Origin: an uncultured Mycoplasma sp.
GTDB taxonomy: Bacteria; Bacillota_I; Bacilli_A; RF39; UBA660
NCBI GenBank assembly: GCA_947646115.1
Contig: CANSFH010000004.1
Location: forward strand, 1 to 59,481
DNA length: 59,481 bases
Direction: 5' to 3'
Notes under the pieces: generated by a model
The model's database searches: none
The model's input: the letters and a program-made list of their open reading frames with translations, nothing else
What the model was told of the DNA's origin: nothing
Made by a program: the position numbers and the translations under genes
In this document: positions 6,322 to 24,101 of the stretch, one piece after another
Numbering within the stretch: position 1 is the stretch's first letter
Layout: every line of letters begins with the position of its first letter

Positions 6322-7095
6322 TTAACCTAGCGCAACATCTAAAATCATCATAATTGTAAAACCTAGCGCTACTCCGACTGTAGCAAATTCTGCATATTTA
6401 TTTTGACTTGATTCTGGAATTAATTCTACTACTACTACATATATCATAGCTCCAGCAGCAAATGCTAAAATATAAGGAAGTATTGGAACAACAAGACTTG
6501 TAAGAAGTATCGTTAATCCTGCCCCAATTGGCTCAACTATTCCAGATAAAACGCCATAACTAAATGATTTCTTTTTAGACATTCCCCCACTTTTTAGAGG
6601 CATTGAAATTATAGCTCCTTCTGGAAAGTTTTGGATTGCTATTCCAGTTGCAAGAGCAAAAGCACTAGCTAAAGTTATACCTGATGCTCCACTTATAAGT
6701 CCAGCAAAAACTACACCTACTGCCATACCTTCTGGAATATTATGAAGGGTTACCGCAAGGACAAGCATTGTATTTTTCTTAAGTTTATTTTTAATTTCTA
6801 CTTTTTGACCATTTTTTTCTAAATGATGTATAAGCTTATCTAAAAGCATTAGCGTAAGAACACCTATACAAAAACCAATTGCAGGAGGATACCAAGCAAT
6901 AGATCCTCTTTCTTCTGCCATTTCTATCGCTGGTATTATTAAAGACCAAACTGATGCGGCAATCATGACCCCTGATGCAAAACCAATTAATATTTGTTCA
7001 AATTTCTTATTAATGTTTTTTTTCATAAAAAATACAAATGATGCTCCAATAGTAGTACCTATAAATGGAATTAAGATACCTAGTAAAATATCCAT
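6322..7095 (-). CDS. ZIP-family (ZupT/GufA-like) metal transporter
   Basis: LHNIPEGMAVG and IQNFPEG motifs. Confidence 0.92.
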   Translation of the reverse strand: MDILLGILIPFIGTTIGASFVFFMKKNINKKFEQILIGFASGVMIAASVWSLIIPAIEMAEERGSIAWYPPAIGFCIGVLTLMLLDKLIHHLEKNGQKVEIKNKLKKNTMLVLAVTLHNIPEGMAVGVVFAGLISGASGITLASAFALATGIAIQNFPEGAIISMPLKSGGMSKKKSFSYGVLSGIVEPIGAGLTILLTSLVVPILPYILAFAAGAMIYVVVVELIPESSQNKYAEFATVGVALGFTIMMILDVALG

Positions 7096-7153
7096 TTTAA
7101 TATCACCTATTTTATTTTATTCTGAGTTTAATAATTGGTTAATAAAAACAATA

Positions 7154-7690
7154 TTAACCTTTTAATTCCAAATATTTCTCTAAATATTCCCAACAACCAG
7201 ATTTAGTGGTTAAGTCTTCATAATTATTATGGATTCTTCTTACAAGTTCAGTTGCATCTACCCATTTAATATCTGAAACTTCTTCAGTTTCTAGCGTAAT
7301 ATCATCTATATCAATATCTTTTTTAACAATATAAAATTCATTAAAATGATTATCAATAGTATTTCCTTTTATATTTTTAGATATTGTTGTACCAATAAAT
7401 ATTAAATCTTCTCTTTTTATATCGATTCCTAGTTCCTCTTTAGTTTCACGTATGATAGCATCATAGCCAAATTCGTTAGTCAAAACATGACCTCCTGCAG
7501 ATATATCCCAAAGATTCGGCCACATTTTTTTAGTAGCGCTTCTTTTTTGCAAAAGCACCTCATTTTGAGAACTAATTAAAAATGCAACAACAGCTCGATG
7601 CCACAAACCTTTTTCGTGCACTTCATCTCTAGTTTTTATTTCTCCAGTAAATTCACCATGTTCGTTTAGAATATCAAACTTTTCTTCCAT
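7154..7690 (-). CDS. NUDIX hydrolase (Idi-like subfamily)
   Basis: GLWHRA, LLQKRS, WDISAGGH...RETKEELG Nudix box. Confidence 0.85.
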   Translation of the reverse strand: MEEKFDILNEHGEFTGEIKTRDEVHEKGLWHRAVVAFLISSQNEVLLQKRSATKKMWPNLWDISAGGHVLTNEFGYDAIIRETKEELGIDIKREDLIFIGTTISKNIKGNTIDNHFNEFYIVKKDIDIDDITLETEEVSDIKWVDATELVRRIHNNYEDLTTKSGCWEYLEKYLELKG

Positions 7691-7721: not shown

Positions 7722-8420
7722 TTACTTATCTTTAGGAGTACTTAAGTAACAGCCTAAATAGCTTGGGCGATTGAAAACTCTTTGTAATTGATGTGGTTTA
7801 TAACCTTTACAAATGTTATTTTTAGCTAGTTCATATAGTTTTTTTCCATCTATTTCTGATGATGTTTCACTTAAAAACATTTCATAATCAGGAATATCAG
7901 GACTAGGATTTAAAGCTAAAATAGCTAACAAGTAAGAATAACTCATCGTTTTTGTTAAATCTCTTAATTCTCGTACTTTTCCTTCTCCTAAAAGATTAGC
8001 AAAATTTATAACTGTATCAAAAGGAGTATTATTAATTTCAGAAAGAACTAATAATAAAATTCTATTAACTCTTTCAAAATTTAAAAGATAATTTTCACTT
8101 TTTTCAGGAATTAGATTAAGACTAGTTAAGACACTTAAAATACCAATTACAGAGTTGTAATATGATGACTTCAATAATTCACTTTCTTGATCATAACCAA
8201 ATAAACAACATATTTTATCAATAAATGTACTAAGTTGCTCTGCAACAGCTAATGAACTTTTTGGTAGTGTTTGATAGGCAATATCGGGAATTAAATCTTC
8301 TAAATATCTTACTTCGGTTTCAATAGTTCTTGGATCTATAAGTTTTAAATCCAACCCAAACATATTATAATATTGTAATATACTTGGAGTGGATAATTTG
8401 TAATATGAATGTTTACTCAT
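7722..8420 (-). CDS. Hypothetical protein
   Basis: 232-aa ORF with GAGGTGG RBS; no recognised motif. Confidence 0.75.
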   Translation of the reverse strand: MSKHSYYKLSTPSILQYYNMFGLDLKLIDPRTIETEVRYLEDLIPDIAYQTLPKSSLAVAEQLSTFIDKICCLFGYDQESELLKSSYYNSVIGILSVLTSLNLIPEKSENYLLNFERVNRILLLVLSEINNTPFDTVINFANLLGEGKVRELRDLTKTMSYSYLLAILALNPSPDIPDYEMFLSETSSEIDGKKLYELAKNNICKGYKPHQLQRVFNRPSYLGCYLSTPKDK

Positions 8421-8516
8421 AATTCCACCTCTTTAAATCGCCTTTATTATAGCATAATTTACTATTATTTCAAGATAAAATTTTACTTATAAATAAATAA
8501 ATGTTATAATCTTGAT

Positions 8517-10649
8517 GTGATGTTTATGAAAAAATTATTTAATATTATAAAGACTATTTTTTGGGCATTTTGGGCTTTTATCAAGGGATGGTTTTCAGAT
8601 AAGAAACCAGGTAAAACTATACAAGAAAATACTCTAGAAAATGTACAAAGAGATAATGCTAAAATTAAAATTATCGATAGTAATGGTTTTACTACTGATG
8701 AAGCTAATAAAGACCCTCAAGAAATATTTATATCTGAAGCACATGTTAAAGAAATAATTAGAGAAAAATATCAAGATAATTTAGGCAATAATTATAATGA
8801 AGATATACCTACAGTAATAGAAAATAAAATTTTAACGCAAGTTAAAAATGAAGTACAAAAAGAAGAAATTATAACTATTAATAATTTAGAAGCTATAATT
8901 GAAGAACAAGTAAAAGCCAATACTCAAGAATTAAATAATACTGAAGATAAGCCTTATGTGAAAAAGACAGCTTTAAAAGAAAATTTTGTAGTTTTATTTA
9001 ATGATAATACTTATCAATTAGTAGATAAATTTGATAATATTATTTCAGTAAGATTTAAAGCTCCTATTATAGATTATGTAGATAATTATTTAAAAGTTTT
9101 TTATGATAATAAATATTATGTTTATGATATTAAAGGTAATATTTTAACTAAAGTTGGTTTTAAGGATATTAGACTTTATGAGGATTTTTATGCAGTTATT
9201 AATGATGATTATTTGTTAGATGTTCGAGAGTATTTAGACCCCAATTTTAAATTATCTACACCTATATTGCTTGATAAAATGTGCTATCAAAGCGACTATG
9301 ATATAAAAAAATATATTAGTGAATATAAAATTAAAATTAAAAGCAAAAATGAAGTGTATCATGCTGATACTAATGGAAATATTTTAAATAAAAAGGAAGT
9401 TAAGCCAATTGATATAACTAACCCCGTAGTTAACTCGCCTATTTTAGAACAACAATCTATTACTAATGAAGATGATAAGCCTTTAGGTAATGAGCAAACT
9501 TATGAAATTAAATATGGTTATAAGGAAGCTAATACTAATGATGCTTTTGAAAATACTTCATATGAAGAAAAATCAGTTAATAATAAAAATGAAGATTTAA
9601 TAAATGATAATTTTAATGAAGATTATCGAGAAACTAATGAGGAAAATCATCAAGCATATAATGATGATGCTATAAGTAATGAAGCTACAGTTGTAAATGA
9701 TAATAGCAATAATAAAAATAGTAATGAAAAACGTGAGATAAATTCAAAAAAAGAAATTACAACAGAAATTCAAAAAGTAGTTGATGATGTTGAAGAAAAA
9801 ATAGAGATAATATCAAATAATAGAATAATAGAAAATAAAAAAGAAGAACTTGATGATAAAAATTATGAAGCTTTAGAAGAAGAACTAAATCAAGTGTTAG
9901 AAATAATTGAATTAAAAAAGAAATCATCTAAAAATCCAGAGGATTTAAAAAAATTGAATTATTTAGAAAATAAAACATTAAGATTAAAAAGGAATATAGA
10001 AATTCAAAAAAATGCTGATATTACTAAAGAAAAGGAATATTTAGATGAAGGAATTCATACTGGAGAACTATATGATTTACAAACAGAACTTAAAAATGTT
10101 CATTTATCTTATGAACAAAATTTAAATAGCTATGCTCTGCAAAGTATCGAAGAATTAAATAAAATAAGTGTTAATGATGCTAATAATATTGAAAAAGATT
10201 TATTAAAAAAGGAATTACATAAAGCAAATAAAGTAGCAAAAGTAGCTAATATTCTGGATTTAATCCCCTTCGTTCGAAATTGTTATTTTAAATTTTTTGC
10301 AAGTGGAATGCTTGTTAAAACACATTTAAAAATATATGAAATTATTTTAAAGAGAAAGACTACTCCTTATAGAGAAAGTAACTTTAATAATATGATTAAT
10401 GGACATACTGCTCTCAATGGTGGCCTTTCGTTGAATGTGAGAAATGTTAATCGATTGAATGCTCTTGATGAAGCAACTAAAGCAAAATTCCCAGAAATGG
10501 CTTATGATGAAGAATATCAATTAAGCATGAATAATTTAAAAAATTCTTTATTATCTGAACAAGAAAAAATGCTTAAGAAAAAAAAGATTATTGCAAAATA
10601 TAATTTAGCTAAAAAAGCTATTGTGAGAGAAAGAAAAAAAGCTGCATAG
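8517..10649 (+). CDS. Large hypothetical protein: amphipathic N-terminus, beta-repeat module, N/E-rich linker, helical C-terminus
   Basis: 710-aa ORF; aa ~156-290 align by eye to the C-terminus of the 24354-26489 protein. Confidence 0.8.
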   Translation: MMFMKKLFNIIKTIFWAFWAFIKGWFSDKKPGKTIQENTLENVQRDNAKIKIIDSNGFTTDEANKDPQEIFISEAHVKEIIREKYQDNLGNNYNEDIPTVIENKILTQVKNEVQKEEIITINNLEAIIEEQVKANTQELNNTEDKPYVKKTALKENFVVLFNDNTYQLVDKFDNIISVRFKAPIIDYVDNYLKVFYDNKYYVYDIKGNILTKVGFKDIRLYEDFYAVINDDYLLDVREYLDPNFKLSTPILLDKMCYQSDYDIKKYISEYKIKIKSKNEVYHADTNGNILNKKEVKPIDITNPVVNSPILEQQSITNEDDKPLGNEQTYEIKYGYKEANTNDAFENTSYEEKSVNNKNEDLINDNFNEDYRETNEENHQAYNDDAISNEATVVNDNSNNKNSNEKREINSKKEITTEIQKVVDDVEEKIEIISNNRIIENKKEELDDKNYEALEEELNQVLEIIELKKKSSKNPEDLKKLNYLENKTLRLKRNIEIQKNADITKEKEYLDEGIHTGELYDLQTELKNVHLSYEQNLNSYALQSIEELNKISVNDANNIEKDLLKKELHKANKVAKVANILDLIPFVRNCYFKFFASGMLVKTHLKIYEIILKRKTTPYRESNFNNMINGHTALNGGLSLNVRNVNRLNALDEATKAKFPEMAYDEEYQLSMNNLKNSLLSEQEKMLKKKKIIAKYNLAKKAIVRERKKAA

Positions 10650-10741: not shown

Positions 10742-11098
10742 ATGATTAGTAATGGTGTGGATATTATAAAAATTGATAGATTAAAAAAAATTGTAAGTAA
10801 TGAAAAAATGTTTAATAATATATTTACCGAAAATGAACATAAATATTTCGAATTTAGAAATAATAGTCTAGAAACTTTGGCCGGAATGTTTGCTGCTAAA
10901 GAAGCTGTTTTAAAGTGTATGCACCAAGGTCTTGATAGTTATAAATTATCAGATATTGAAGTTAATCACAATAATTATGCCCCCTACTTAACATTTTATG
11001 GTGAACTAAAAAAAGAAATAGAACTGCAAAATTTACACTTTTCGGTTTCTATTTCTCATGATGGCGAATATGCAATAGCTTTTGTTATTTCATTTTAA
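10742..11098 (+). CDS. acpS: Holo-ACP synthase (phosphopantetheinyl transferase)
   Basis: GVDII, FAAKEA and SISH motifs. Confidence 0.92.
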   Translation: MISNGVDIIKIDRLKKIVSNEKMFNNIFTENEHKYFEFRNNSLETLAGMFAAKEAVLKCMHQGLDSYKLSDIEVNHNNYAPYLTFYGELKKEIELQNLHFSVSISHDGEYAIAFVISF

Positions 11099-12026
11099 CT
11101 TCTTTTTTATAGTTAATTAAATCTTCATTCCAAGTATTATATTTTGAATCTTGTCTGTGATCAGTAAATCCTTTCATTTTCATATAGTTTCCAAGATATT
11201 CGGAAACTTTTTTTGAGCCTTCAAAGTTTAAATGATCCCCTTTATCTACAGTTTCAGTTGCCCAATCTATATTTAAATTAACATCTAAGTTTAAATCTAA
11301 ATGTGCTACTTGAAACTCTTTAGCAATTTCTTTAATTGCTAAATATTTAGAATAATTGCAATTTTTCATACTTGGAGTACTTAAAAGTATTAATTCAATA
11401 TTATTTTCTTTACATTTTTCAATAATTTTAGAAATGTAATAATAATTTAAATCAGGTATTTCTTTAACATCTTTTTTCTTTTTCATATAATTCTTATGAA
11501 CATTATCAGGTGAGTTAACTTTACTCATATAGCGAAAACCTTTTAAATGATCACGATCTTTATAATTTTCTTCAGCAAATAATTCGCTTAATGATAAATT
11601 TTTCCAACGATTATGATATTCAAATACAGGAAATATTTTTTTACCTTCAGCACCAATAACATTTATAACTTTGTATTTACGAAAAAATTGATTTGTTTCT
11701 AAAAAAACAATTTGAGGTTTTTGGTTTTTTAAAGTTTTAATTAAATTATTATAAGATTCATATAAATATTGTGCTGACATGGCAAGATCATAAGAAGTAT
11801 AACCATAATTTTCCCATATATGCATGGGATTTATTGCTGTGTAAACAAGTGAATCACCAATAAATAAAGCGTCAAGAGAATTATCTTTTTCTCCCATTAC
11901 TAAATTTGTTTTGCGCGTTCTTGTAGACATTGCAATGTTACTTTTTGGAACAAATATAAATGATGATACTAATAATAAGATAATAAAAATGATAAGAAAT
12001 ATAAGAACTTTAACAACATTTTTCAT
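11085..12026 (-). CDS. SGNH/DltD-like membrane-anchored acyltransferase partner
   Basis: N-terminal TM; FIGDS block I; DKGDHLN (DxxH) block V; follows the MBOAT gene. Confidence 0.75.
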   Translation of the reverse strand: MKNVVKVLIFLIIFIILLLVSSFIFVPKSNIAMSTRTRKTNLVMGEKDNSLDALFIGDSLVYTAINPMHIWENYGYTSYDLAMSAQYLYESYNNLIKTLKNQKPQIVFLETNQFFRKYKVINVIGAEGKKIFPVFEYHNRWKNLSLSELFAEENYKDRDHLKGFRYMSKVNSPDNVHKNYMKKKKDVKEIPDLNYYYISKIIEKCKENNIELILLSTPSMKNCNYSKYLAIKEIAKEFQVAHLDLNLDVNLNIDWATETVDKGDHLNFEGSKKVSEYLGNYMKMKGFTDHRQDSKYNTWNEDLINYKKEVKMK

Positions 12027-12036
12027 AAATTACCTC

Positions 12037-13626
12037 CTAAAAATTAGCATATATTGGATCAATTGGTGTATAACCAGGACCATAAGCGCCAAAGATTATT
12101 ATAAACATAATAAGTGCAAAATAAATAACCCATCTGAAAACTATATTATAGCTAGCAATTTTCTCACGAATATTTAAGCCTTTTTCTCGTAATAAGCCAA
12201 TTATAAAAACAATTATAATAGAAACAATAATTATAATAAAGTCATTGCCATCTACCCCAAAAGTTAAGAATTTACCATTAATAAAACTTTCAAAAGTAAA
12301 AGAAGTAAAGATTGTTTTTATCATATTTAAAGCTTGTGTAAATGTGTTTGCCCTAAAGATTAATTCTCCAAAGACAATTAAAATAAATAGTTTAATAAAT
12401 TCAACAAGACGATAAATTATACTATTACGATTAATATGAAGTTTTAGACATAAATCTCTTATGAATGGTTCAGTAATATTACCTAATAAAATTAAAATAA
12501 AATGATATAATCCAAAAGCAATATAATTCCAACCAGCACCATGCCATAAACCGTTTAATAACCAAACTGATAATAAAGCTACAGATCCAGTTAATAGTGG
12601 ACCAAAATGATTTCCTAATTTTTTACGAGTAACAATAGTTAGTTTTTTCATCTTTTTAGATAAAGATACTGGATAAAAAATATAGTCTTTAAACCAAGTA
12701 CCTAAAGTAATATGCCATCTAGTCCAAAATTCGGAAATTGTTTTAGAGAAGAATGGCTGACGGAAATTTTCTGGAAGTTTGATACCAAATATTTCTCCAC
12801 TACCTATAATGACATCCATTGTACCTGAAAATTCCATATAAAGCATTATCGTGTAACATATTGCGCCAAATAGCACTAAACCACCATCAAGGACTTCTAC
12901 ACCATCAAATACTACTTTCACAAAAGCATTTAAACGATCAGCTACAACAAATTTTTTTAAGATTCCCCAAAGAATTCTTTGACAGCCAAAGCAAATATTT
13001 TGAAAAGTTATTTCTTTGCCACTGTATAAATCTTCTGCAGTGTCATTATATCTTGCAATTGGTCCTTCCATAATTCCAGGAAAGAAAGCAAGATAAAGTG
13101 CTAATCTAGTTATTTTATGATCAGCATCGATTTTTTTATGATAAACATCAACTAGATATGATATAGCTGCTAAAGTATAGAATGAAACGCCGATTGGGGC
13201 AATTAATTTGAATAATTTAAATTCAAATGGAATATTGATAATCTTTAATAAACTATTTATATTTACTGTAAAAAATGGTAAATATTTATATATAAAAAGT
13301 ATTATTACTTGCATGAGTATAGCTAGTAACAAAAATCTTTTTTTCTTTTTCTTAAAAGCTTCTTTTACCTTCTTTTTATCTTCGACAATATTTTTAGCAA
13401 AAAATTCTTCAGATTCAGTATCTATTTTCTCAAATTTTCTTCCAAAAAAATAAATGGAAGCTGTAGTAAATAACAAGAAGATTATTAATTTACCGGATAT
13501 TAAAAAAAAGAAAATGTAACTAGCTAGAAGCAATACTAACCATTTACATTTCTTTTTAGCTATATGATAAATTAGAACTGTAAGTGGCAAGAAAAAAAAT
13601 AAATATACGACACTTAAGTAGTTCAC
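12037..13626 (-). CDS. MBOAT-family O-acyltransferase (DltB/AlgI-like)
   Basis: PIGVSFYT, EGPI, ENFRQP, EFWTRWHITL, GLWHG. Confidence 0.93.
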   Translation of the reverse strand: MNYLSVVYLFFFLPLTVLIYHIAKKKCKWLVLLLASYIFFFLISGKLIIFLLFTTASIYFFGRKFEKIDTESEEFFAKNIVEDKKKVKEAFKKKKKRFLLLAILMQVIILFIYKYLPFFTVNINSLLKIINIPFEFKLFKLIAPIGVSFYTLAAISYLVDVYHKKIDADHKITRLALYLAFFPGIMEGPIARYNDTAEDLYSGKEITFQNICFGCQRILWGILKKFVVADRLNAFVKVVFDGVEVLDGGLVLFGAICYTIMLYMEFSGTMDVIIGSGEIFGIKLPENFRQPFFSKTISEFWTRWHITLGTWFKDYIFYPVSLSKKMKKLTIVTRKKLGNHFGPLLTGSVALLSVWLLNGLWHGAGWNYIAFGLYHFILILLGNITEPFIRDLCLKLHINRNSIIYRLVEFIKLFILIVFGELIFRANTFTQALNMIKTIFTSFTFESFINGKFLTFGVDGNDFIIIIVSIIIVFIIGLLREKGLNIREKIASYNIVFRWVIYFALIMFIIIFGAYGPGYTPIDPIYANF

Positions 13627-13628
13627 TT

Positions 13629-13859
13629 TTATTCTTCCTCTTGTAATTTAGTTATTAGTGCATACATACTTTTTACAGAATTAAAGTTGCTAGGAATGAT
13701 TTCAATTGTTGGTATTTCAACTTCAAACTCCTCTTCTATTTCTGCGACTAATGATAAAATAGTTAAAGAATCTAAAAATCTTCCATCTACTAAATTATCT
13801 GTATTTTGGTAATCTACCTCGGGATTTAATCCTTCTAATATTTCAATTAATTTATCCAT
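13629..13859 (-). CDS. Acyl/aminoacyl carrier protein (DltC-like)
   Basis: 76 aa, acidic, LDSL phosphopantetheine site, NFNSV. Confidence 0.9.
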   Translation of the reverse strand: MDKLIEILEGLNPEVDYQNTDNLVDGRFLDSLTILSLVAEIEEEFEVEIPTIEIIPSNFNSVKSMYALITKLQEEE

Positions 13860-13867
13860 TTATAACA

Positions 13868-15025
13868 CTACCTTTCTTCATTTGGACTATTTAATTTACT
13901 TGTTTTAATATTTGCTCGTACAAGCTCAATATTATCACCATTTTTAATTAATACTTTAGGTAATTCTCTACTTAAGAATAAAGATATACCTTCAGTTGTA
14001 GAGTAAGCTCCAGTATTTTTAAAAACTATTATATCACCTAGTTCTAAATGCCCAGGATGAAATTCTTTTACTAAAATATCATTTATAGTACATAAAGAAC
14101 CTACGACAATATAAGTATCATTACCATTCCTTTTGGGAATAACTTCATTGTAAGGAGTGTTCATGGCCATATTACCACCATAATATACTAAATGATTTAT
14201 TCCTCCATCTACTAGAGCATATGTACCTGATTTATTAGTTTTTAAATCAACGACACTAGTTAGGTATTCCCCTGCAGGAGCAGCAATACTTCGACCTAAT
14301 TCAAGACTAACTTTTTTATTTTTAATATGTTTGATAATTCGACTAAATTCAGTTAAGAATTCATCTTCATTAAAATTTGATCCTTCAAAATAATAAATTG
14401 GAAAACCTGGGCCATATTCAAATTCTTCTAAAGTGATATTATAGTCTCTTTCTAAATTTTCCATTAACTCATTTACTTTAATTAGTTCTTTTTCTAATAT
14501 CGGAATTGAATGCCGTTGGGTCTTATTAAAATATTCAATTCCCTTAATATTCATAAACTCTTTATCAAAATGTTCCAAAACATATTTTACGTCACTTTCA
14601 CTCATTCCAAATTGGTTACCACTTGTAAGTCTTATTAAAACATCAATCTTACGATTATATTCTTTAGATAATCTAGATAAAAGTTGAAACTGGTTTAATG
14701 ATTCAAGAGTAAATTTACCAGGATTAGAATGTTCAAACATATAACGAATACTAGCTTCATCTTTATATACTCCTGATATTACCATTTTTTCATCAGGAAC
14801 ATTTGATGAAACTGCTATTTCATATTCGCCAAAAGAACATAATTCGACTTTTTCAACGTATTCTTTAATATAAGGAATTAAGAAAGTGTTAGCTTTTACC
14901 GCATATACTAGATCAATATCCTTACTAATATATTTTCGTAAATAGTTAATACGCTCTTTTAATTTAGCTATATCAAGTAAATAAAATGGTGTCGAATATT
15001 TTTTCGTTATTTCTTCAATATTCAT
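13868..15025 (-). CDS. PLP-dependent fold-type III decarboxylase (LysA/BtrK/VinO-like)
   Basis: YAVKAN, ELGR, GSLC, GAYS; the HIGSQ and GGG motifs are altered to YFNKTQ and YGPGF. Confidence 0.85.
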   Translation of the reverse strand: MNIEEITKKYSTPFYLLDIAKLKERINYLRKYISKDIDLVYAVKANTFLIPYIKEYVEKVELCSFGEYEIAVSSNVPDEKMVISGVYKDEASIRYMFEHSNPGKFTLESLNQFQLLSRLSKEYNRKIDVLIRLTSGNQFGMSESDVKYVLEHFDKEFMNIKGIEYFNKTQRHSIPILEKELIKVNELMENLERDYNITLEEFEYGPGFPIYYFEGSNFNEDEFLTEFSRIIKHIKNKKVSLELGRSIAAPAGEYLTSVVDLKTNKSGTYALVDGGINHLVYYGGNMAMNTPYNEVIPKRNGNDTYIVVGSLCTINDILVKEFHPGHLELGDIIVFKNTGAYSTTEGISLFLSRELPKVLIKNGDNIELVRANIKTSKLNSPNEER

Positions 15026-16527
15026 TATTTCACCTCCCTACTCATTAAAGCTTTACGATCAATTTTACCATTTTTGGTAAGAGGCATTTCTTCTACTTTT
15101 ATTAATTTGGTGGGAATCATAAACACGGGTAAAGTTTCCTTTAATTTTAAATGTAAATCTTTTTTATCCATATCGCCAATGTAGAAGCCATAAAGCTTAC
15201 TTTTTTCTTCATCAAATATAACGCAAGAACGAATTATACCATTTATTTTCATCATAGCTCGTTCAATTTCTTCTAACTCGATTCTATGTCCTTGATATTT
15301 AATTTGAAAATCTTTGCGACCACAAAATACTATTTCACCAAATTCATTATATTCACCAAGATCTCCTGTATTATACATCATTTCTTGATATTCGGTAACT
15401 AGAGGATTAGTTATAAATACCTCATTGGTTTTTTCTTTATTATTATAATATCCTAAAGCTAAAGCAGTTCCACTTACACAGATTAAGCCTTTTTCATGAG
15501 GTTTAGTTATTTCTTTAGAGTTATCATCAAGAAGCATTACTCTTTCATTAGGAAAGTGCTTACCAATAGGTATTTTATCTTCATACATTCTATTTCTATC
15601 AAGGATATGATAAGTACAATTACAAGTTATTTCAGTGGGACCATAAACATTAACAAACATTGTATTAGGTAATTTTTCCATCCAAATATTTAAATGTTTC
15701 ATTGGCATTACCTCTCCAGAGAAAATTACTCTTCTAACAGACTTGGGCACTTTATAATCAAGACCATGGAAAGTAGTAATTAAACAAAGTGCAGAGACTG
15801 CCCAAGTTAAATTAGTTATGTTTTTATCTACTAAATAATCTAGTAATTTAGCAGGATTTGAAAAATAACTTTTAGGTATTATAACAAGAGTAGCTCCTGT
15901 AAAAAAGGCCGCATAAATATCTTTTACGGAAACATCAAAATCAAATGGAGCTTGATTACCTATAATATCAGTATCATTAATACCAAAAAGTCTAGTAAAC
16001 TCTCGCATAAAATCGATAATAGAACGATGACTTACTACAACACCTTTAGGAACTCCTGTAGAACCAGAAGTAAAGTTAATATATACAGGGTCATAATCAA
16101 TTACTTTATCATGAATAATATTTAATAATTCTATATTTATGGTTGTATTTTTAATATCACTAATATTTACTACATTTTCAAATAATTCACAAGCTAGATT
16201 AAGATGGTCATCATCAGTTATAACAAGAGGACTATTTAGTACACTTTTAATATCTAAAATTCGGTTATGAGGAAATTCGGGATTAACTAAACAATAGCTG
16301 CATCCGGCATACAGTGAACCTAAAAATGAAATTGAAGTATCTATTCCTTTATCCATAAAAATAATTATGGGCTTTTTAAATATTTTTAAATTAGCTATAA
16401 AAGTTCCAACACTTCGAGAAGATTTAATTAAATTTTTATAAGTTATTTTTTCGTCTTCACATATAATAGCTAGTTTATCAGGATATAAACTCGCACTATT
16501 TTCAATATAATTTAAGACTGTGTACAT
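15025..16527 (-). CDS. Stand-alone amino acid adenylation enzyme (DltA-like)
   Basis: FTSGSTGVPKG, FDVS, YGPTE, YNTGD, GHRIELEEIE, NGKIDR core motifs. Confidence 0.93.
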   Translation of the reverse strand: MYTVLNYIENSASLYPDKLAIICEDEKITYKNLIKSSRSVGTFIANLKIFKKPIIIFMDKGIDTSISFLGSLYAGCSYCLVNPEFPHNRILDIKSVLNSPLVITDDDHLNLACELFENVVNISDIKNTTINIELLNIIHDKVIDYDPVYINFTSGSTGVPKGVVVSHRSIIDFMREFTRLFGINDTDIIGNQAPFDFDVSVKDIYAAFFTGATLVIIPKSYFSNPAKLLDYLVDKNITNLTWAVSALCLITTFHGLDYKVPKSVRRVIFSGEVMPMKHLNIWMEKLPNTMFVNVYGPTEITCNCTYHILDRNRMYEDKIPIGKHFPNERVMLLDDNSKEITKPHEKGLICVSGTALALGYYNNKEKTNEVFITNPLVTEYQEMMYNTGDLGEYNEFGEIVFCGRKDFQIKYQGHRIELEEIERAMMKINGIIRSCVIFDEEKSKLYGFYIGDMDKKDLHLKLKETLPVFMIPTKLIKVEEMPLTKNGKIDRKALMSREVK

Positions 16528-16599
16528 ACTACCACCTCTTACTTAACAAAATTATAGCAAAAAAAAATTAAGTGTATCTTAAATTAACCTTAATTTTTC

Positions 16600-18180
16600 T
16601 TAAGAAAGAGGAAACTCTATTATAAATTCAGTTTTATATGGTTTACGTGGTTTTTTTATAAGTCTAATTGCTCCCCCATTAATTTCAACTGCTCTTTTAA
16701 CTATCGATAAACCAAGACCTGTACCAGTAGATGGTCCACGTGAATCATCGCCACTTACAAAAGGATTAAAAATATTATCCATTAATTCTTCATTAATCCC
16801 CTTGCCATTATCAGCAAATGTAATTCTAATTGTTTTTTTGATTTTTTCAAGTTTAAAATAAATAGTAGTACACTTTTCATTATATTTTAAAGCATTAGAT
16901 ATTAAATTATCAAGCATACGATTCATAATTTTTTTATCTATGTTGTATATTATTTTATAATTAGGAATTTTAACGTCAAGTTTAAATTTTAAAATTTCAA
17001 TGTCATTATATTTATTAGCTAAATATGTCGTAAAATATTCACTTAAATCAACTGCTTCTAAATGAATATCTAAACCTTTATTTTCATATTTGGTAAATTC
17101 TAATAAAGAATTTATAACATTTGTAGCTTCTTCACATTTACTATAAATTGCTTCTAAATAAATACGTTTTTTATTGTCAGGGACAATATCGTCTAAAAAT
17201 GCTTTGGAATAACCTTCAATAACTGTAAGAGGAATTTTTAAATCATGAGACAAATTAGCAAATATTCGAGCTCGCTCCTGATAAAGTTTATTTTTCTTTT
17301 CTTCTTCTCTTTTTAATTTATTAAAAATACGTTTAAAGCTATATACTAGCTTTATAAATTCTTTAGATATTTTACTATTTTCAATGACAAACTCATTATT
17401 TTTTTCATAATTCTCTAAAGCAATATTTAATGGTTCTAAACTTTTTTTGATATTAGAAACTATAAGATAAGCATAAATAATAATTATAGCTAAAAATAAA
17501 GGAATAAAATAAATCCAAGTTTGATTGATATGATTTAGAGTTTTTTGAAGTTCATCAGGATTTAGTTCTTTTGATAAAAAAATTATTATTCTTTTTTCTC
17601 CATCAATAGTTTCATAACTAGCTTTTTCAATAGAAATTCCTTTAGTATGATTGCCTTCAATTAAATTAAATTCTCGTTCAGTTAATGATGTTTTATCACC
17701 AAATAAGCTTCCATTTACAATATTATAATCTTTATCTAAAAAAGCAAAATCTACATATTCATTTGTACCACTTGAAGAAAACTTACTTTTTATTATATGA
17801 TAAAACTTTTCATTTTTAATATTTTTTTCATAAACAGTATAATAACTATAATCATAATAATCATTAATAAAGTCTAAATCTTCATCAGCAATAATATTAT
17901 TTAAATTAGAATCAGTAGAATATATAACTTCAAAGTCCTCATTATAAATTAAAAAATTATTATTTTTAAACTTATATAATGGTAATTTTGTAAAGTTATC
18001 AGTACGTAATATTTCTTCATAATTAAGTAAATCATCAATATATAAAAAACTATTATCAAGGCAATAATCAACTAATTTATTTACCAGAAAAAAAGTTAAT
18101 AAAATAGTCGTAATAAATAGTATAAAATAAATAATAGTATTTTTAATTAAGCTTTTATTAATTTTCATTTTTAGTTTCAA
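16600..18180 (-). CDS. Sensor histidine kinase
   Basis: Two TMs, SHDLKIP H-box, NLISNALKY, DNGKG, GTGLGL. Confidence 0.93.
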   Translation of the reverse strand: MKLKMKINKSLIKNTIIYFILFITTILLTFFLVNKLVDYCLDNSFLYIDDLLNYEEILRTDNFTKLPLYKFKNNNFLIYNEDFEVIYSTDSNLNNIIADEDLDFINDYYDYSYYTVYEKNIKNEKFYHIIKSKFSSSGTNEYVDFAFLDKDYNIVNGSLFGDKTSLTEREFNLIEGNHTKGISIEKASYETIDGEKRIIIFLSKELNPDELQKTLNHINQTWIYFIPLFLAIIIIYAYLIVSNIKKSLEPLNIALENYEKNNEFVIENSKISKEFIKLVYSFKRIFNKLKREEEKKNKLYQERARIFANLSHDLKIPLTVIEGYSKAFLDDIVPDNKKRIYLEAIYSKCEEATNVINSLLEFTKYENKGLDIHLEAVDLSEYFTTYLANKYNDIEILKFKLDVKIPNYKIIYNIDKKIMNRMLDNLISNALKYNEKCTTIYFKLEKIKKTIRITFADNGKGINEELMDNIFNPFVSGDDSRGPSTGTGLGLSIVKRAVEINGGAIRLIKKPRKPYKTEFIIEFPLS

Positions 18181-18835
18181 ATTTATACCCGAGCCCCCTT
18201 ACAGTTACAATATATTTTGGTTTAGATACATTATCTTCTAATTTACTACGAAGATTAGATATATGAACCATTATCGTATTATCGTCAAAGCAATAATTAT
18301 TACTTATTGCTTCATATAATTGATATTTGGTAAATACTTTACTAGGATTTTTCATTAAAAGTGCTAATATTTTAATTTCTGCAGTGGTTAAATTTAAAAG
18401 TTCATCTTCTTTATAAACTAAAAAGTTATCTAAATCAAGTTTAATATTGCCAATACTAATAGTTTTAGATTCTTTAGAAGTTCTTCTAAATATAGCGTTG
18501 ATATAAGCAAGTACTTCTAGAGGATTAAATGGTTTGGTGATATATGCATCGGCGCCTAAATTAAGACCTAAAATGCGGTCATTATCAGAAGCTTTAGCAG
18601 ATAAAAATATTACAGGAACATCACTAAACTTACGAATGTTTTTTACTAGTTCGTAGCCGTCCATAACTTCCATCATAACATCAGCGATAATTAAATCAAT
18701 TTTTTTTTCATTATAAATAGTCAAAGCTTCTTTTCCATTATAGCTTTTATAGACATTATAGTTATTTGATTCTAAATAAAGAGTTAAAAGTTCAACAATA
18801 TCTTTATCATCTTCAGCAATAAGAATATTTTTCAT
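18158..18835 (-). CDS. OmpR-family response regulator
   Basis: AEDD, DVMM, ITKPF, TVRGLGY. Confidence 0.95.
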   Translation of the reverse strand: MKNILIAEDDKDIVELLTLYLESNNYNVYKSYNGKEALTIYNEKKIDLIIADVMMEVMDGYELVKNIRKFSDVPVIFLSAKASDNDRILGLNLGADAYITKPFNPLEVLAYINAIFRRTSKESKTISIGNIKLDLDNFLVYKEDELLNLTTAEIKILALLMKNPSKVFTKYQLYEAISNNYCFDDNTIMVHISNLRSKLEDNVSKPKYIVTVRGLGYKFETKNEN

Positions 18836-19065
18836 TATTATTCACCAACACTTTTTAACATGTTTAGTATAGCAAAAAAGTATAAATTTGTAAATTAACT
18901 TGTACTTATATTGTAATTAATATATTTATTTAATTTTGTCAAAAAAGAACTGACCATTTTAATATTACAAAATTTAAGTTTTTTATGAAGCTCATAACTT
19001 TAGTTGGTACAAACTCCTTTCAGAACAAAAAAAAGATTAACCGAAATTAACCTTTATGTATTGAA

Positions 19066-19110
19066 AGTCGAATTAGTTAGACTAATTTCCCTTTGGTGCC
19101 CTAAAGGAGA
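19066..19110. repeat. Degenerate copy of a tRNA 3' end plus inner inverted repeat (att-like remnant)
   Basis: tggtgccctaaaggaga (19094-19110) matches 12/17 to tggtgtcccaggcgaga (19836-19852); preceded by the IR agtcgaa...ttagact. Confidence 0.55.
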
Positions 19111-19122
19111 CATTAAACAACT

Positions 19123-19671
19123 TTAAAATCTAAACAAAAAATTAGTTAATACTTGATAAACTTCAGGTCTTTCAACTAGTTCATTATTATCTATCATTTT
19201 TTGAATTGAGTTTAAATTCACAAATTTTACAGCTTGTACTTCTTCCTTTTGAAAAAATAATGTTTTATCATCAACTCCAGTTGTTCTTAAAATAAAGAAA
19301 TCATAAAATTGTCTTTCTATAAAATCTTTTTTAAATACTTGTTCTTTTCTAAAACAATACATATATCTAAAATCTTTTATTTCAGTTCTGTAACCAAGTA
19401 ATACACTTACCTCTTCATTTATTTCGCGAGCTGCAGCGGATAAAGAATCTTGTCCAGCCGAAATATGTCCAGCAACAGAAATATCCCACATACCAGCATT
19501 TTTTTCTTTTTTTTCACTTCTTTGCTGTAATAAAATTTCATTTTTTTCATTTACGATTGCAACCACAATAGCTCGATGCCATAATCCTCTTTTGTGAACT
19601 TCACTTCTAGGTAATACTTCACCTGTTAAAATACCATTTTCATCAAGGACATCTATTAATTCAGTGGTCAT
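19123..19671 (-). CDS. NUDIX hydrolase (Idi-like), paralog of 7154-7690
   Basis: GLWHRA, LLQQRS, WDISVAGH...REINEE. ATG at 19671 with GGAGG RBS (ORF open to 19689). Confidence 0.85.
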   Translation of the reverse strand: MTTELIDVLDENGILTGEVLPRSEVHKRGLWHRAIVVAIVNEKNEILLQQRSEKKEKNAGMWDISVAGHISAGQDSLSAAAREINEEVSVLLGYRTEIKDFRYMYCFRKEQVFKKDFIERQFYDFFILRTTGVDDKTLFFQKEEVQAVKFVNLNSIQKMIDNNELVERPEVYQVLTNFLFRF

Positions 19672-19835
19672 ATTTATACCTCCATTCAATTACATATATT
19701 GTTTATGACAATATACAAGCGATTTACTAAATTGACATAAATCAATTTTATTTATATAAATATTTTATCATAATTTTAAATATATTAAAACTCGAACTTT
19801 AAAATAAATTAAAAGTTAGAGTTTAGTTATCACTC

Positions 19836-19910
19836 TGGTGTCCCAGGCGAGAATCGAACTCGCAATTAGGCTTTAGGAGAGCCTCGTTATATCCATTTAA
19901 CTACCAGGAC
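19836..19910 (-). tRNA. tRNA-Arg(CCT)
   Basis: Reverse complement GTCCTGG TA GTTA AATGGATA TAAC G AGGCT CT-CCT-AA AGCCT AATT GCGAG TTCGATT CTCGC CTGGGAC A CCA; full cloverleaf, 75 nt, encoded CCA. Confidence 0.95.
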
Positions 19911-19958
19911 AAGTTGCAAAATAATTATATAACTATTTTGCGTTTTTGACAATATTTC

Positions 19959-20303
19959 CTAATCAACTATTTTATGTTGGTCTTTGTTCCAAGCTGGTGT
20001 ACAAGTAAGAGTTAAAACTGAATATTCTGTTTCATAATAATATTTTTCATGAGGTAATATTAAGATTGCATCACCTTTAGAATAACTTATTTCATTATTT
20101 TCGAAATGAATAGTTCCCTTTCCTTCTAAAACATAAACAAGTTCTTTACTAACTAGATTTAAAGCATATCCAGTACTGGGAAATCTTCCAGTAATAGTAG
20201 CAACTCCTAAATCAATATCTTTATCCTGAAAAGAATATTCAATAGTTTTACATATTTCACTATTTTGACCGTTTTTAGAATCATGTAATTTTACTATTTT
20301 CAT
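19959..20303 (-). CDS. Cupin-domain protein
   Basis: ELVYVLEGKG...GDAILILPHEKYY cupin motifs. Confidence 0.8.
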   Translation of the reverse strand: MKIVKLHDSKNGQNSEICKTIEYSFQDKDIDLGVATITGRFPSTGYALNLVSKELVYVLEGKGTIHFENNEISYSKGDAILILPHEKYYYETEYSVLTLTCTPAWNKDQHKIVD

Positions 20304-20308
20304 GTTTT

Positions 20309-21043
20309 CTATTTAGTTCTCCTTAAAACAATTACATCTTCATCTTCAGCAATTCTATAATTTGCTGTCCTAGCAGAAGACATTGTATCTTCGATAATAA
20401 TACCTTTTCTTTCTGCTAAAAATGCATCAATATAATTTGTATGATATTCAGGTAATCTATCTTTTGGAACTTGAAGCTCTAAAGCTTCTGGTAATATTAA
20501 GCTTGTATCTGCATGTTGATGAAGCTCTAAATAATCATCTTGCGAATGATACCAAAGACTTCCTCTCGTACCGTTTTCTCCACTTAAATCAGCATGAATA
20601 ACATTATGTTCAATACTAACTTCTGGCTCATTTAATTGTTTAGCAATGTTTTGAACAAACTCACTATCCAACATAGTTTTAATTGCTTCTGCAAATTTTA
20701 CATCATCTTTAACTTGAGCGTGATAATATCCTGATAAAGCAAAAACATCATTAAATTCTTTTAAATCTTTAAAAGTTTCTTTACCATGTAGATTGACATC
20801 CCAACCAAATTTTAATAAAAATTCCATTAATGCAACACCTAATGAATTTTCTTTAATTTTAAAGTTTAAATATAAATTTGGATTATGTTCTGGAGTTTGA
20901 TAAATTCTAAAATTAAAATCTTGTACTCTTCTATCAGCTGTAAAAACATATTGTTTAAGTTTTGCTAATTCTTCTTGATGATGAAGATATTCTCCTCTTA
21001 ATCCAAATATAATGTTTTCGATTGTATAATTTTCTTGTTTCAT
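20309..21043 (-). CDS. Hypothetical protein
   Basis: 244-aa ORF in a co-oriented cluster; no motif. Confidence 0.75.
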   Translation of the reverse strand: MKQENYTIENIIFGLRGEYLHHQEELAKLKQYVFTADRRVQDFNFRIYQTPEHNPNLYLNFKIKENSLGVALMEFLLKFGWDVNLHGKETFKDLKEFNDVFALSGYYHAQVKDDVKFAEAIKTMLDSEFVQNIAKQLNEPEVSIEHNVIHADLSGENGTRGSLWYHSQDDYLELHQHADTSLILPEALELQVPKDRLPEYHTNYIDAFLAERKGIIIEDTMSSARTANYRIAEDEDVIVLRRTK

Positions 21044-21068
21044 TTTATTTTCTCTTTCTGTTTATTAT

Positions 21069-21317
21069 TTATTTTTCTAACACACTTTTTATTTCTTGTA
21101 GTTCAAAACGATATTTTTGTTTGATATCAGGATATTTTTCATGGTCCACTTCACTTAAAAACATAGCTAATGGTCTAATTTTTAAACTACAATCACCATA
21201 TAATCTTCGATATATAACATACTGTTCTTTCGTTTCTGAATGTTCTGCAATATCAACAACTATGTAATGATTTCCTTTAAAGTGCTTATATATTCTTTTT
21301 ACTTTTACCTCTCTCAT
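21069..21317 (-). CDS. DUF1653-family protein (copy 2)
   Basis: YKHFKG...VIYRRLYGD...[16 protein letters not shown]...QKYRF. Confidence 0.88.
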
Positions 21318-21330
21318 TTAAACTCCTAAT

Positions 21331-21576
21331 TTATTCTAAAGCACTTTTTATTTCTTGTAGTTCAAAACGATATTTTTGTTTGACATCGGGATATTTTTCA
21401 TGATCCACTTCACTTAAGAAATCATTTAATGGTCTTACACATACTGAACCATCTCCATAAAGATGACGATAAATGACAACTGGTTTTCCTGTTTCTGAAT
21501 CTATACCAATTTCTTCAACTAAATAATAATCGCCTTTAAAATGTTTATATATTCTTTTTAATTCTACTTCTCTCAT
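21331..21576 (-). CDS. DUF1653-family protein (copy 1)
   Basis: YKHFKG...VIYRHLYGD...[16 protein letters not shown]...QKYRF. Confidence 0.88.
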
Positions 21577-21581
21577 TTTGT

Positions 21582-24101
21582 TTATCCTTTCAATTTTTCT
21601 AATTTTTCTTCTTCTAAAGCTAATTTTTCTTTTTCAGATTCAACTAAATTAGCTGGTGCTTTACTAACAAAATTAGCATTAGCTAGTAAAGATTTTCTTT
21701 TAGCAATTGAAGTTTCTAAATCAGTTATTTCTTTTTCTAGAGCTAATTTATCTTCTTCAGTTAGCGTTTTTTCATAATATATTGTTAAATCATAGTTCTT
21801 ATAAGTTACATTATAAGCATTAATATTTAGAGTTTCAGTTGTAACATTATTTATTTTTAATAATTTTTTAATTAGCTCATAATCAGAATTATTATTAAAT
21901 TTAATCGTAGCACTTTTATTTAAATGATTTTCTTGATATGTTTTGCGATAAATTCTAATAAATTCAATCATATCAGTTATATTCTCTTCACATTCAGTGA
22001 ATACTTCTTTTTTATCAAATATTGGATAGCTACTAATCATTATGTTTTCGTGTGTATTAGGTAATTTTGAATATATTTCATCAGTAACATAAGGCATAAA
22101 TGGATGAAGCATTTTTAAAATACCACTTAAAACTTTCTTTAAAACACTTTTAGTTGTAATACTATCTAAATTAAATTTAGCAAATTCAATGTAGTTATCA
22201 CAAAAATCATTATAAATAAAATTGTAAATTTCTGTACCAGCATTATTAAGTTCAAACTTATCCATAAATTTGGTAACATTTTTAATAGTTTTATTATATT
22301 TACTTAAAATCCATTTATCAGTTTTTGTTAAGTTTTCGAAAGATTCATTTGATAAATCTTCAATATTCATTAATACAAAGCGAGAAGCATTCCAAAGTTT
22401 GTTGATGAAATTCCAAGTAGATTTTAAAGCTTCTTCATCAAATTTTAAATCCATGCCGTTAGATACAGCGGTTGTTAAGTAGAATCTTAAGGCATCAGCG
22501 CCATATTTTTCAGCCATATCCATTGGGTCAATACCATTTCCAAGGCTTTTAGACATTTTACGTCCTTCTTTATCACGAATAAGTCCATGAATTATGCAAT
22601 GTTCAAATGGACGTTTATTTAAAAATTCTAAACCTTGAAAAGTCATTCTATTTACCCAGAATGGAATAATATCATAACCAGTAACTAAAACATTATTTGG
22701 ATAATATGTTTCTAAATCTTTAGTATTTTCTGGCCAACCTAAAGTTGAGAATGGCCATAAAGCAGAACTAAACCAAGTATCAAGTACATCTTCATCTTGA
22801 ACCCAACCTTCGCCAGTTGGAGCTTCTACCCCTACATATACTTCATCACCTTTATACCAAGCAGGGATTCTATGTCCCCACCAAAGTTGACGAGAAATAC
22901 ACCAGTCATATGTAATTTCCATCCAGTGATTCATTATTTTTTCAAAACGACTTGGAACAAAGTTCACTTTATTATTCTTATCTTTTTGATTTAATAGTAC
23001 TCTATCAGCTAGAGGACGCATTTTAACAAACCATTGTTTAGAAATAATTGGTTCAATTAAAGCGCCGCTTCTTTCACTAAAAGGTGCATTATGGGTAATA
23101 TTCTCAACATTAAGTAATAGGCCAAGATTCTTTAAATCATTAACTAATTTTTCGCGACACTCAAATCTATCTAATCCTTCATAAACTCCAGCTGTTTTAC
23201 TCATTGTACCATCTAGCTCGATACATTCTATAGCATCTAAATTATGACGTTGTCCTACTTCATAATCGTTAGGATCATGGAACGGAGTTATTTTTACACA
23301 ACCTGTTCCTTTTTCCATATCAGCGTGTTCATCACCAATAATAGGAATTAATCGATTAACTATTGGAAGAATTACATTCTTGCCAATAAGTTTATTATAA
23401 CGGGAATCCTCTGGATTAACGGCGACTGCTGTATCACCAAATAAAGTTTCAGGACGAGTTGTTGCTACATCTAAATATTCTTCACTATCTTCAAGTTTAT
23501 ATTTTAAATGATAAAAAGCTCCTGGAACATCTTTATAAATAACTTCTTCATCAGATAGAGCAGTCATTGCAACTGGATCCCAGTTAATCATCCTTTTTCC
23601 TTGATAAATTAATCCTTTATTATAAAGGTCAACAAATACTTTTCTTACAGCATGAGATAATCCTTCATCTAAAGTAAAACGTTCTTTAGAATAAGCAAGA
23701 GATAAACCTAGAGTTGCCCATTGATTATGAATATTTAAAGCATATTCTTCTTTCCAAGCCCAAGCATGTTTTAGCCACTCTTCTCTAGATAAACTTCTTG
23801 GATTAATACCTATCCCACTTAATCTTTTATCAACTTTGGCTTGAGTTGCAATTCCAGCGTGATCCATTCCCGGAAGCCATAAAGTATTATATCCTTGCAT
23901 TCTTTTATATCTAATTAAAGCATCTTGAATTGATGTATCCCATGCGTGCCCAATATGTAATTTGCCAGTTACATTTGGTGGTGGTATTACGATACAAAAA
24001 GCTTCTTTAGCCTCACAATTAGGTTCAAAATAGCCATTCTTTTTCCAATTTTCATATTTGTTTTTTTCAACACTTAAGTGATCATATTTTTTGTCTAACA
24101 T
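21582..24101 (-). CDS. valS: Valine--tRNA ligase
   Basis: [39 protein letters not shown]-terminal coiled coil. Confidence 0.98.

Follow-up and report, generated by a model that had tools for sequence, protein, structure and literature searches.

A one-gene NUDIX cassette at the 3' end of tRNA-Arg(CCT) in an uncultured Mycoplasma sp. and its probable link to large serine recombinases

The stretch of DNA analyzed here (the window) is the 59,481 nt of contig CANSFH010000004.1 (C4; assembly GCA_947646115.1), part of the metagenome-assembled genome (MAG) of an uncultured Mycoplasma sp. (GTDB lineage Bacteria; Bacillota_I; Bacilli_A; RF39; UBA660), a genome of 1.23 Mb with 26% GC and 91% completeness. 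On the minus strand of this contig, a tRNA-Arg(CCT) gene is followed directly by a single gene for a NUDIX hydrolase, which is followed in turn by a sequence resembling the 3' end of the tRNA and, further on, by the gene of a response regulator. The segment from 19094 to 19835 (~740 bp) is probably a non-autonomous integrative cassette that was inserted exactly after the encoded CCA of the tRNA. Read from the tRNA towards the response regulator, the locus comprises the following features:

19836..19910, minus strand: tRNA-Arg(CCT), serving as anchor; junction 1 is formed by its encoded CCA at 19836 (ARAGORN; Rfam tRNA, 61 bits)
19787..19835, minus strand: left arm of the cassette, with a 12-nt spacer GAGTGATAACTA, a hairpin AAACTCTAACTTT/AAAGTTCGAGTTT and a T-run (fold)
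19672..19786, minus strand: promoter and leader of the cassette, with an extended -10 element TATGATAAAAT (~19762-19772), a second promoter-like site (19738-19710) and the ribosome-binding site (RBS) GGAGG (19679-19683) (promoter scan, direct sequence reading)
19123..19671, minus strand: cargo gene for a 182-aa NUDIX hydrolase of the IDI/YfcD-like branch, no family cut-off being reached for that branch (Pfam, NCBIfam)
19094..19124, minus strand: right-end motif of the cassette, AAAGTTGTTTAATGTCTCCTTTAGGGCACCA, overlapping the stop codon; its CCA end at 19094 forms junction 2 (nhmmer, consensus comparison)
19010..19093, minus strand: left-end stub of a serine-recombinase/MobV element, with a spacer, hairpin 1 (19066-19083), a terminator hairpin (~19032-19055) with T-run, and an RBS remnant GAAAGGAG (19015-19022) (alignment with intact elements)
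18836..19009, minus strand: flank up to the start of the response-regulator gene; 18836-18936 is the promoter region of the regulator and common to close strains, and 18937-19009 is unique

The cargo is assigned to the NUDIX family by its Pfam match (PF00293, 1.5e-16, 61 bits against a cut-off of 21) and by the Nudix box GHISAGQDSLSAAAREINEEV readable in its translation. Among the NCBIfam models, IPP isomerase fits best (66 bits, cut-off 127), and no equivalog cut-off was reached. More than 1,300 homologues were found, of which the best 120 are 79-99% identical, and the close ones all measure 182 aa. The start codon is the ATG at 19671 behind GGAGG and not the upstream TTG. The NUDIX gene is the only open reading frame (ORF) in the cassette, and the unit contains neither a recombinase nor a transfer gene. 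In the left arm, the two halves of the inverted repeat (19788-19800 and 19812-19824) are complementary at 12 of 13 positions and fold with -8.6 to -10 kcal/mol (z = -2.4). A scan of 17000-22000 against Rfam (E ≤ 1) returned the tRNA only, the motif and the hairpins matching no known RNA family, and a composition profile revealed no anomaly in the islet. Owing to the AT-rich stems, a scan for terminators returned nothing. At 7154-7690 of the window, 12 kb away, there is a paralogous NUDIX gene with 36% identity.

The right end of the cassette is 31 nt long, from the stop codon to the terminal GGGCACCA. Its 17-mer at 19094, TGGTGCCCTAAAGGAGA, agrees with the last 17 nt of the tRNA at 12 positions. 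A match this good or better to the tRNA 3' 17-mer was found at one other place in 119 kb (both strands of the window), so that a same-strand match within 1 kb is expected ~0.02-0.03 times. When the two junctions were aligned globally (last 17 nt before the CCA plus 49 nt after), they scored 10, as compared to -9 ± 4.9 for random window segments; this score was reached by 2 of 3,000 random segments and by none of 2,000 shuffles. Both junctions consist of CACCA, ~12 nt and then a hairpin, and are alike as well as in agreement with the family consensus described below. An earlier, sequence-only reading of this locus had placed the 12/17 copy and an inverted repeat beside each junction at these positions and had proposed that both junctions carry the same signature; the positions were confirmed by a sequence check, and the similarity of the junctions lies far beyond chance.

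The right end belongs to a conserved 31-32-nt cassette end, AAAGTTGTTGAACGTCCTCCCTTAGGGCACCA, which begins at the stop codon and, as a tRNA does, terminates in CACCA. When one genome per species was scanned with the exact pattern, the consensus AAAGTTGTTGAACGTCCTYCCTTAGGGCACCA was located at 26 loci in ~24 MAGs of gut Bacilli/"Tenericutes", where it closes unrelated single genes. All relatives compared in this work are MAGs or metagenome contigs, and the matching contigs belong to uncultured Bacilli/"Tenericutes" MAGs from mouse gut and other gut samples. The window copy carries four changes from AAAGTTGTTGAACGTCCTCCCTTAGGGCACCA, the sequence that closes a GDSL-lipase gene at locus L049; this copy, which has a 1-nt deletion, was detected by nhmmer and not by the substitution-only motif scan. 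nhmmer found it to be the single copy in the window genome. Nearly every motif locus has the same order, in which a tRNA with its CCA is followed by the hairpin GATTGATAnnAAACTCGAAC-loop-TTCGAGTTTT, a promoter leader, one gene (rarely two) and the motif at the stop codon. At these 26 loci the left arm GATTGATAnnAAACTCGAAC...TTCGAGTTTT stands directly 3' of the CCA of Thr, Arg, Leu and Phe tRNAs and also of the cassette motif itself, while 3' of the motif there is either the next unit or a different spacer-plus-hairpin module. Tandem arrays are present at L064, L078, L083 and L087, and one unit (L072, in genome G052) has no cargo. Six cargo genes could be named by Pfam (transglutaminase-like, GH43, GNAT, RibD_C, NT5C and KilA-N); a short-chain dehydrogenase and a metallo-beta-lactamase were named only by eye from their translations.

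Seven tRNAs serve as anchors, namely Thr(CGT), Thr(GGT), Arg(CCT), Arg(TCT), Leu(TAA), Leu(TAG) and Phe(GAA), and the motif sequence is constant whichever of them precedes it. The motif is therefore not a copy of tRNA-Arg, as the sequence-only reading had supposed in calling it a degenerate one; it is better described as a conserved, cassette-borne mimic of a tRNA end, and by sequence comparison the 12/17 match reflects the common GGG(A)CACCA end. At a distance of 15 nt from its GCACCA end, the motif reads GTTGAAC-GTCC, and tRNAs read GGTTCRAnnCC at 14 nt from theirs. The same reading had expected its junction motif to recur at other borders, and the junction signature does recur, at other tRNAs of the window genome and in the ~24 other genomes.

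Several related arrangements were seen near other tRNAs. In the window genome, tRNA-Arg(CCG), Leu(CAA) and Gly(GCC) have trailers of the cassette type, and tRNA-His and tRNA-Trp (C2:64373-76000 and C8:75-1800) each precede a left end of the recombinase-element type described below. Downstream of each of the latter two is a homologue of a small ORF (~97 aa) with no recombinase, and behind tRNA-His there is a row of small accessory genes, two of them NUDIX-like in appearance. A second, highly conserved leader type, GATTGATAGGAAACTCGAACTTTTCGAGTA...AACGACTTGTCAAAAAGTCGTTTTTATGTTATTATGAATATG...AGGGAACTTGCATAAAATAAAAAGGGAA, is found 3' of many tRNAs, in the first ~150 nt after the tRNA (L064, L065, L070, L073, L076, L079, L083, L085, L086; also L049 1-120).

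Two cassettes occur in nearly identical form behind different anchors. Copies of the ORF188 cassette, 97.0% identical over 1,063 bp, follow tRNA-Arg(TCT) in the same-genus genome G003 and tRNA-Thr(GGT) in a different MAG. For the ORF304 cassette (98.6% identity over 1,147 bp), the anchor is tRNA-Thr(GGT) in one case and a recombinase element's right end in the other. In both pairs, homology extends from 5 nt before the CCA end to 9-23 nt past the motif, indicating that the cassettes move as discrete units. The left-arm hairpin and T-run resemble a tRNA terminator and probably also terminate the tRNA transcript in place of the tRNA's own terminator, and cassette-free relatives have an ordinary terminator ~11 nt past the tRNA, the same distance as the left-arm hairpin. 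These resemblances would suit a locus at which nothing is mobile, the hairpins and motif being lineage-specific terminator, promoter and processing signals and the gene content differing by ordinary indels. That explanation is the least probable of those considered here. It is contradicted by the 97-99% identical cassettes with sharp boundaries behind different anchors in different genomes, and it does not account for a unit that is empty or for a motif that occurs once in the window genome and in only three of the 44 genomes surveyed from the same genus (the window genome, G003 and G052).

The occupancy of the tRNA-Arg(CCT) site differs between relatives. Synteny was established through the flanking ValS gene, because the strongly diverged tRNA gave no match to relatives by BLAST. 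In G003, the ValS of which is 80% identical, the order is ValS, DUF1653, tRNA-Arg(CCT), 128 bp, response regulator, kinase and Dlt-like operon, without a NUDIX gene. The tRNA promoter (TTGTCA-17-TATAAT at 19952-19924 of the window) is conserved in G003, which identifies the two loci as orthologous and G003 as an empty site. Three close strains (L050-L052, 93% nucleotide identity) have the tRNA, the NUDIX gene, a UDG-like gene, a Mur-ligase-like gene and the regulator; their homology to the window stops at 19083 and returns at 18936. Locus L053 has yet another continuation, and other members of the genus have unrelated genes after ValS and the tRNA. At L049, the same NUDIX module (94.5% nucleotide identity) stands behind the motif-ending GDSL-lipase gene instead of a tRNA. 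The BLAST alignment of L049 corresponds to 19851-19109 of the window and ends inside the right-end motif; it continues 16 nt beyond the CCA junction (19835/19836) only because the motif of L049 resembles the tRNA 3' end. The leader TGTCAATTTAGTAAAcacaCTTGtATATTGTCA is common to the window cassette, to the lipase and NUDIX cassettes of L049, and to L004. The NUDIX gene is thus not invariant at this site, and the relatives together with the family consensus bear out the earlier suggestion of a discrete one-gene unit at the tRNA 3' end within a tandem stack.

A further array, behind tRNA-Thr(CGT) at L056 (UDG, 108 aa, NUDIX, MazG, NUDIX2), includes a NUDIX gene 91% identical to that of the window. 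Between its MazG and second NUDIX genes (7063-7141) is a tRNA-like sequence that was not called by ARAGORN, with an acceptor GCCGAGG/CCTCGGC and an ACCA end. In one sample, a tyrosine integrase gene stands in place of the downstream genes of this array (7959-9089).

Recombinase genes were surveyed in 24 genomes: the window genome, two others of the same genus, and 21 others having the motif. Resolvase-domain genes were found in 23 of the 24, with 2-22 in each. Among the best 30 Resolvase loci (~3.4 kb each), 12 include a tRNA or tmRNA, always upstream of the gene and on the same strand. No tRNA was found near a tyrosine recombinase at any of the top 30 Phage_integrase loci in these genomes, a weak control as these are mostly Xer-like housekeeping genes. 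Whole elements consist of a ~95-aa ORF without Pfam or NCBIfam match and a serine recombinase of 560-640 aa, the best model for which is CcrB (153 bits against a cut-off of 900); in some there is a MobV relaxase gene as well (122 bits, cut-off 100). At L065, L067, L071 and L080, such elements start directly after a cassette motif. Their right ends read AAAAGTTGTAGATAACTATCACTATCGCACCA and are followed by the next left arm. The exact cassette motif was not found at the right ends of recombinase elements within 7 errors; the related right end that occurs there agrees with the cassette motif in length and in its eight initial and six final bases. The recombinase elements of L063, L080, L085 and L120 combine a left arm of the same kind with the right end AAAGTTGT...GCACCA. 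Because the left arms are of the same kind and the right-end termini match, cassettes and recombinase elements share both kinds of end. On the basis of adjacency and these shared ends, the recombinase acting on the cassettes is most likely a large serine recombinase, and likely not the tyrosine integrase of classical tRNA islands.

In each of the four full elements inspected (L119 806-1087, L120 1183-1473, L121 647-940 and L122 411-695), the conserved ~95-aa ORF separates the left end from the serine-recombinase gene, and tblastn places this ORF after the left end in other loci as well. It is a candidate directionality factor or DNA-binding partner.

Tyrosine integrases usually target the 3' ends of tRNA genes (Islander, PMC4383910), and the related array L056 has a Phage_integrase gene ~150 bp past its last gene. 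It could be proposed that such an enzyme put the NUDIX islet into the 3' part of tRNA-Arg, with the distal 12/17 repeat as the decayed, displaced tRNA end (attR). In addition to the absence of tRNAs from the 30 tyrosine-recombinase loci, this origin is made improbable by a distal repeat that is the same behind seven different tRNAs and derived from none of them, and by an insertion point after the CCA and not within the gene. Several of the motif-bearing genomes have only one to three tyrosine recombinases, of Xer-typical length, and there is no tyrosine integrase in the NUDIX islet. Membership among the classical tRNA islands was accordingly rejected, no tyrosine integrase being linked and the distal repeat being tRNA-independent and matched at only 12 of 17 positions.

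The ends of the cassette also recall single-strand transposition of the type of insertion sequences IS200/IS605, in which a Y1 HUH transposase supplied in trans would place the element 3' of a short target, here TTGAT inside GATTGATA. ISDra2 targets TTGAT, the cassette has a subterminal hairpin at its left end, and it is inserted beside a fixed short sequence without target duplication. This route is nevertheless very improbable: only 12 of the 24 genomes have Y1_Tnp genes, which are missing from G000, G003, G052 and four of the array-bearing genomes; no counterpart of the left-end hairpin is present at the right end; and serine-recombinase genes lie inside elements having these ends. A derivation as an IS200/IS605-related miniature element (palindrome-associated transposable element, PATE) was rejected for the same distribution of Y1_Tnp and lack of a right-end hairpin.

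Several observations count against a dedicated serine recombinase. The assembly of the window genome (91% complete) contains no cognate recombinase, despite the scan for one that the sequence-only reading had suggested; its only two serine recombinases are phage-type, 28% identical, and not beside tRNAs. MobV is likewise absent from the window genome, and the motif-bearing genome G074 shows no Resolvase gene. The link to the recombinase rests on adjacency and shared ends, and to this is added the weakness of the tyrosine-recombinase control noted above. The missing recombinase would suit ordinary homologous recombination, in which the left arm and right-end motif serve as portable homology with no dedicated site-specific enzyme, and the arms conserved between loci (30-110 bp) are of a kind that such exchange could use. 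We consider this unlikely, if less so than a tyrosine integrase or a Y1 transposase. The same cassette is found behind different tRNAs that have only CACCA in common with the motif, which is too little homology for plain homologous recombination; the homology stops within a few bases of the CCA; and the recombinase-bearing elements have the same two ends.

The 84-bp stub between the NUDIX cassette and the flank connects the window itself to these elements. It shares ~90% identity with the DNA immediately 3' of the CCA in tRNA-Leu(TAG), tRNA-Thr(CGT), tRNA-Leu(CAA) and tmRNA (L096, L098, L115, L104); that DNA reads TAGGGAAATTAGTCGAACTAAATCGACTTTCAAAATATAAAGGTTAATTTCGGTTAATCTTTTTTG...GGAAGGAGTTTGATTAGTTATG and leads into the ~95-aa ORF and a serine recombinase of ~590 aa. 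The second inverted repeat of the window (19066-19083) is complementary at 6 of 7 positions and in intact relatives is a perfect AGTCGA-N6-TCGACT. The likeness of the stub to element left ends identifies this repeat as hairpin 1 of such an element. Beyond 19010, the window diverges from the left ends of recombinase elements, the second element being cut off at the RBS of its first gene. The sequence-only reading had taken both inverted repeats as flanks of the cassette; the first is indeed its left arm, and the second belongs to the truncated neighboring element. The 84 bp beside the NUDIX gene are thus what a lost mobilizable element left as a scar.

These elements suggest a mechanism in which a serine recombinase would join the right-end/left-arm junction of a circular element to any sequence that resembles a tRNA 3' end with its trailer. 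Every element and cassette would bring its own tRNA-end mimic at its right end, and because this end is portable, each insertion would recreate the docking site, giving head-to-tail stacks behind the tRNA. Cassettes without a recombinase would be moved in trans, or be left by deletion of the recombinase part. Tandem accretion by a recombinase acting in trans, as proposed in the sequence-only reading, is supported by the cassette boundaries, the variable site, the recurring motif and the shared ends: the cassette has no recombinase and same-ended elements elsewhere have one, although the cognate copy is missing from the window genome. Taken as a whole, a non-autonomous cassette beside an element remnant, both products of stacking driven by a serine recombinase, is the best explanation of the locus and in our judgment a probable one, its mechanistic part being what we infer from sequence comparison. 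The motif is eroded both in the window, by its four changes, and in L050 (CACCA to CACTT). With an eroded motif and no remaining cognate recombinase, the cassette has probably become fixed, and may best be seen as a fixed relic that is probably expressed from its own promoter. The NUDIX gene of the window is an accessory, horizontally acquired gene.

The closest published framework is the tandem accretion of ICESt1/ICESt3-type elements with cis-mobilizable elements (CIMEs), recombinase-less units that keep both end sites (PMC5704250). The NUDIX cassette resembles a CIME in having attachment-type junctions on both sides, no recombinase or transfer gene inside, and autonomous relatives with the same ends (outside the window genome). 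CIMEs, too, are arrayed at a target gene's 3' end, in tandem with elements that supply the integrase and relaxase genes (PMC5704250). The known cases involve tyrosine integrases and a true copy of the end of one target gene, whereas the cassettes described here have a large serine recombinase as candidate enzyme, many tRNA and tmRNA anchors, insertion after the CCA, and a conserved mimic as the distal site. Integrative and mobilizable elements with serine recombinases integrate inside genes and disrupt them (PMC5704250).

Among serine-recombinase systems, a comparison with the staphylococcal cassette chromosome (SCC) is apt. SCC and the ccr-less pseudo-SCC elements at rlmH/orfX use large serine recombinases, insert at the very 3' end of a conserved gene, form head-to-tail composites and include recombinase-less cassettes with varied cargo. 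They differ in having one protein-gene target instead of many tRNA/tmRNA ends, and the recombinase found here is only distantly Ccr-like, with its CcrB score far below the cut-off. The units here, 0.2-2 kb with their own promoters, are also much smaller than those of SCC. Membership in the SCC/Ccr group was rejected on account of that score and of targets that are tRNA/tmRNA ends instead of rlmH. The ssrA islands of Dehalococcoides with the serine recombinase DsiB, reportedly described by McMurdie in 2011, are said to form tandem stacks behind a tRNA-like gene end, repeats of which separate the units. Those islands differ in their single ssrA target, their true direct repeats and their large size, and we know of no one-gene cassette family with a portable mimic end described from them.

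Integrons and clusters of attC sites lacking integron-integrases (CALINs) resemble the present cassettes in their single-gene arrays, in a recombination-site-like sequence after the stop codon and in a cargo of small, diverse enzymes (GNAT, NUDIX and others). An integron was rejected, as there is no IntI, attI or folded attC, the motif lacks a long hairpin, and the cassettes have promoters of their own, no neighboring integrase gene and a tRNA end for an anchor. The tycheposons of Prochlorococcus are likewise tRNA-anchored islands built by successive integrations, side by side, with partial tRNA copies between them and degraded remnants, and a minority of them carry large serine recombinases (bioRxiv 10.1101/2020.12.28.424599). 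They differ in having mostly tyrosine recombinases, partial tRNA copies, sizes of several kilobases and replication genes (bioRxiv 10.1101/2020.12.28.424599). In the literature searched, no account was found of one-gene cassettes that are linked to serine recombinases and sit at the CCA ends of many different tRNAs.

Should the proposed mechanism prove correct, small-genome uncultured gut Bacilli, in which the means of gene exchange are poorly known, would possess a second and independent way of capturing genes in the manner of integrons, one that relies on serine recombinases and has tRNA ends as its anchors. The mechanism would account for the hypervariable tRNA flanks of these MAGs, provide annotators with a 32-nt marker of cassette boundaries, and point to serine recombinases with unusually generic, tRNA-shaped targets, which would be of interest to users of integrases as tools. 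A broader and more tentative proposal, which we hold to be possible but short of an even chance, is that low-GC gut Bacilli run an open-ended, integron-like platform for gene capture, with a family of large serine recombinases that would recognize the generic geometry of tRNA/tmRNA 3' ends and a portable 32-nt mimic on each unit. Under such a platform, any tRNA could grow a stack of self-expressed accessory genes exchanged between species.

The two-component system and Dlt-like operon to the left of the cassette (10742-18835) were found in four of the 44 genus genomes, which marks the block as accessory; its arrangement next to tRNA-Arg(CCT) is common only to the window and G003, and in G003 it directly adjoins the tRNA. 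A search of the whole window for junctions with perfect stems returned chance matches only, with no further junctions around the Dlt-like block. The suggestion of the sequence-only reading that this block is an older layer of cargo thus found no junction motif or other sign in its favor.

The tRNA-Arg(CCT) gene diverges strongly from the orthologous tRNA of other genomes of the same genus (window 19836-19910; L039 12340-12415; L053 3016-3090). It is 75 nt long, as compared to 76-77 nt in same-genus genomes, with differences in the D-arm and anticodon stem; BLAST against those genomes gave no match at E ≤ 0.001, and the promoter is nonetheless conserved with G003. In the close strain L053, both halves of the T-stem differ from L050 and from the window. 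By these comparisons, the gene appears to have undergone unusually fast evolution or replacement. A 36-nt inverted repeat, 72% complementary, flanks the tRNA (19731-19766 and 19918-19953), and both of its arms read as promoters of the type TTGACA-17-TATAA, one of which drives the tRNA while the other aims antisense at it from downstream. On the 5' side of the tRNA (19959-21317), the window has, relative to G003, an extra cupin gene, a gene for a 244-aa protein without family match and a second copy of DUF1653, an addition that a recombinase targeting 3' ends would not explain.

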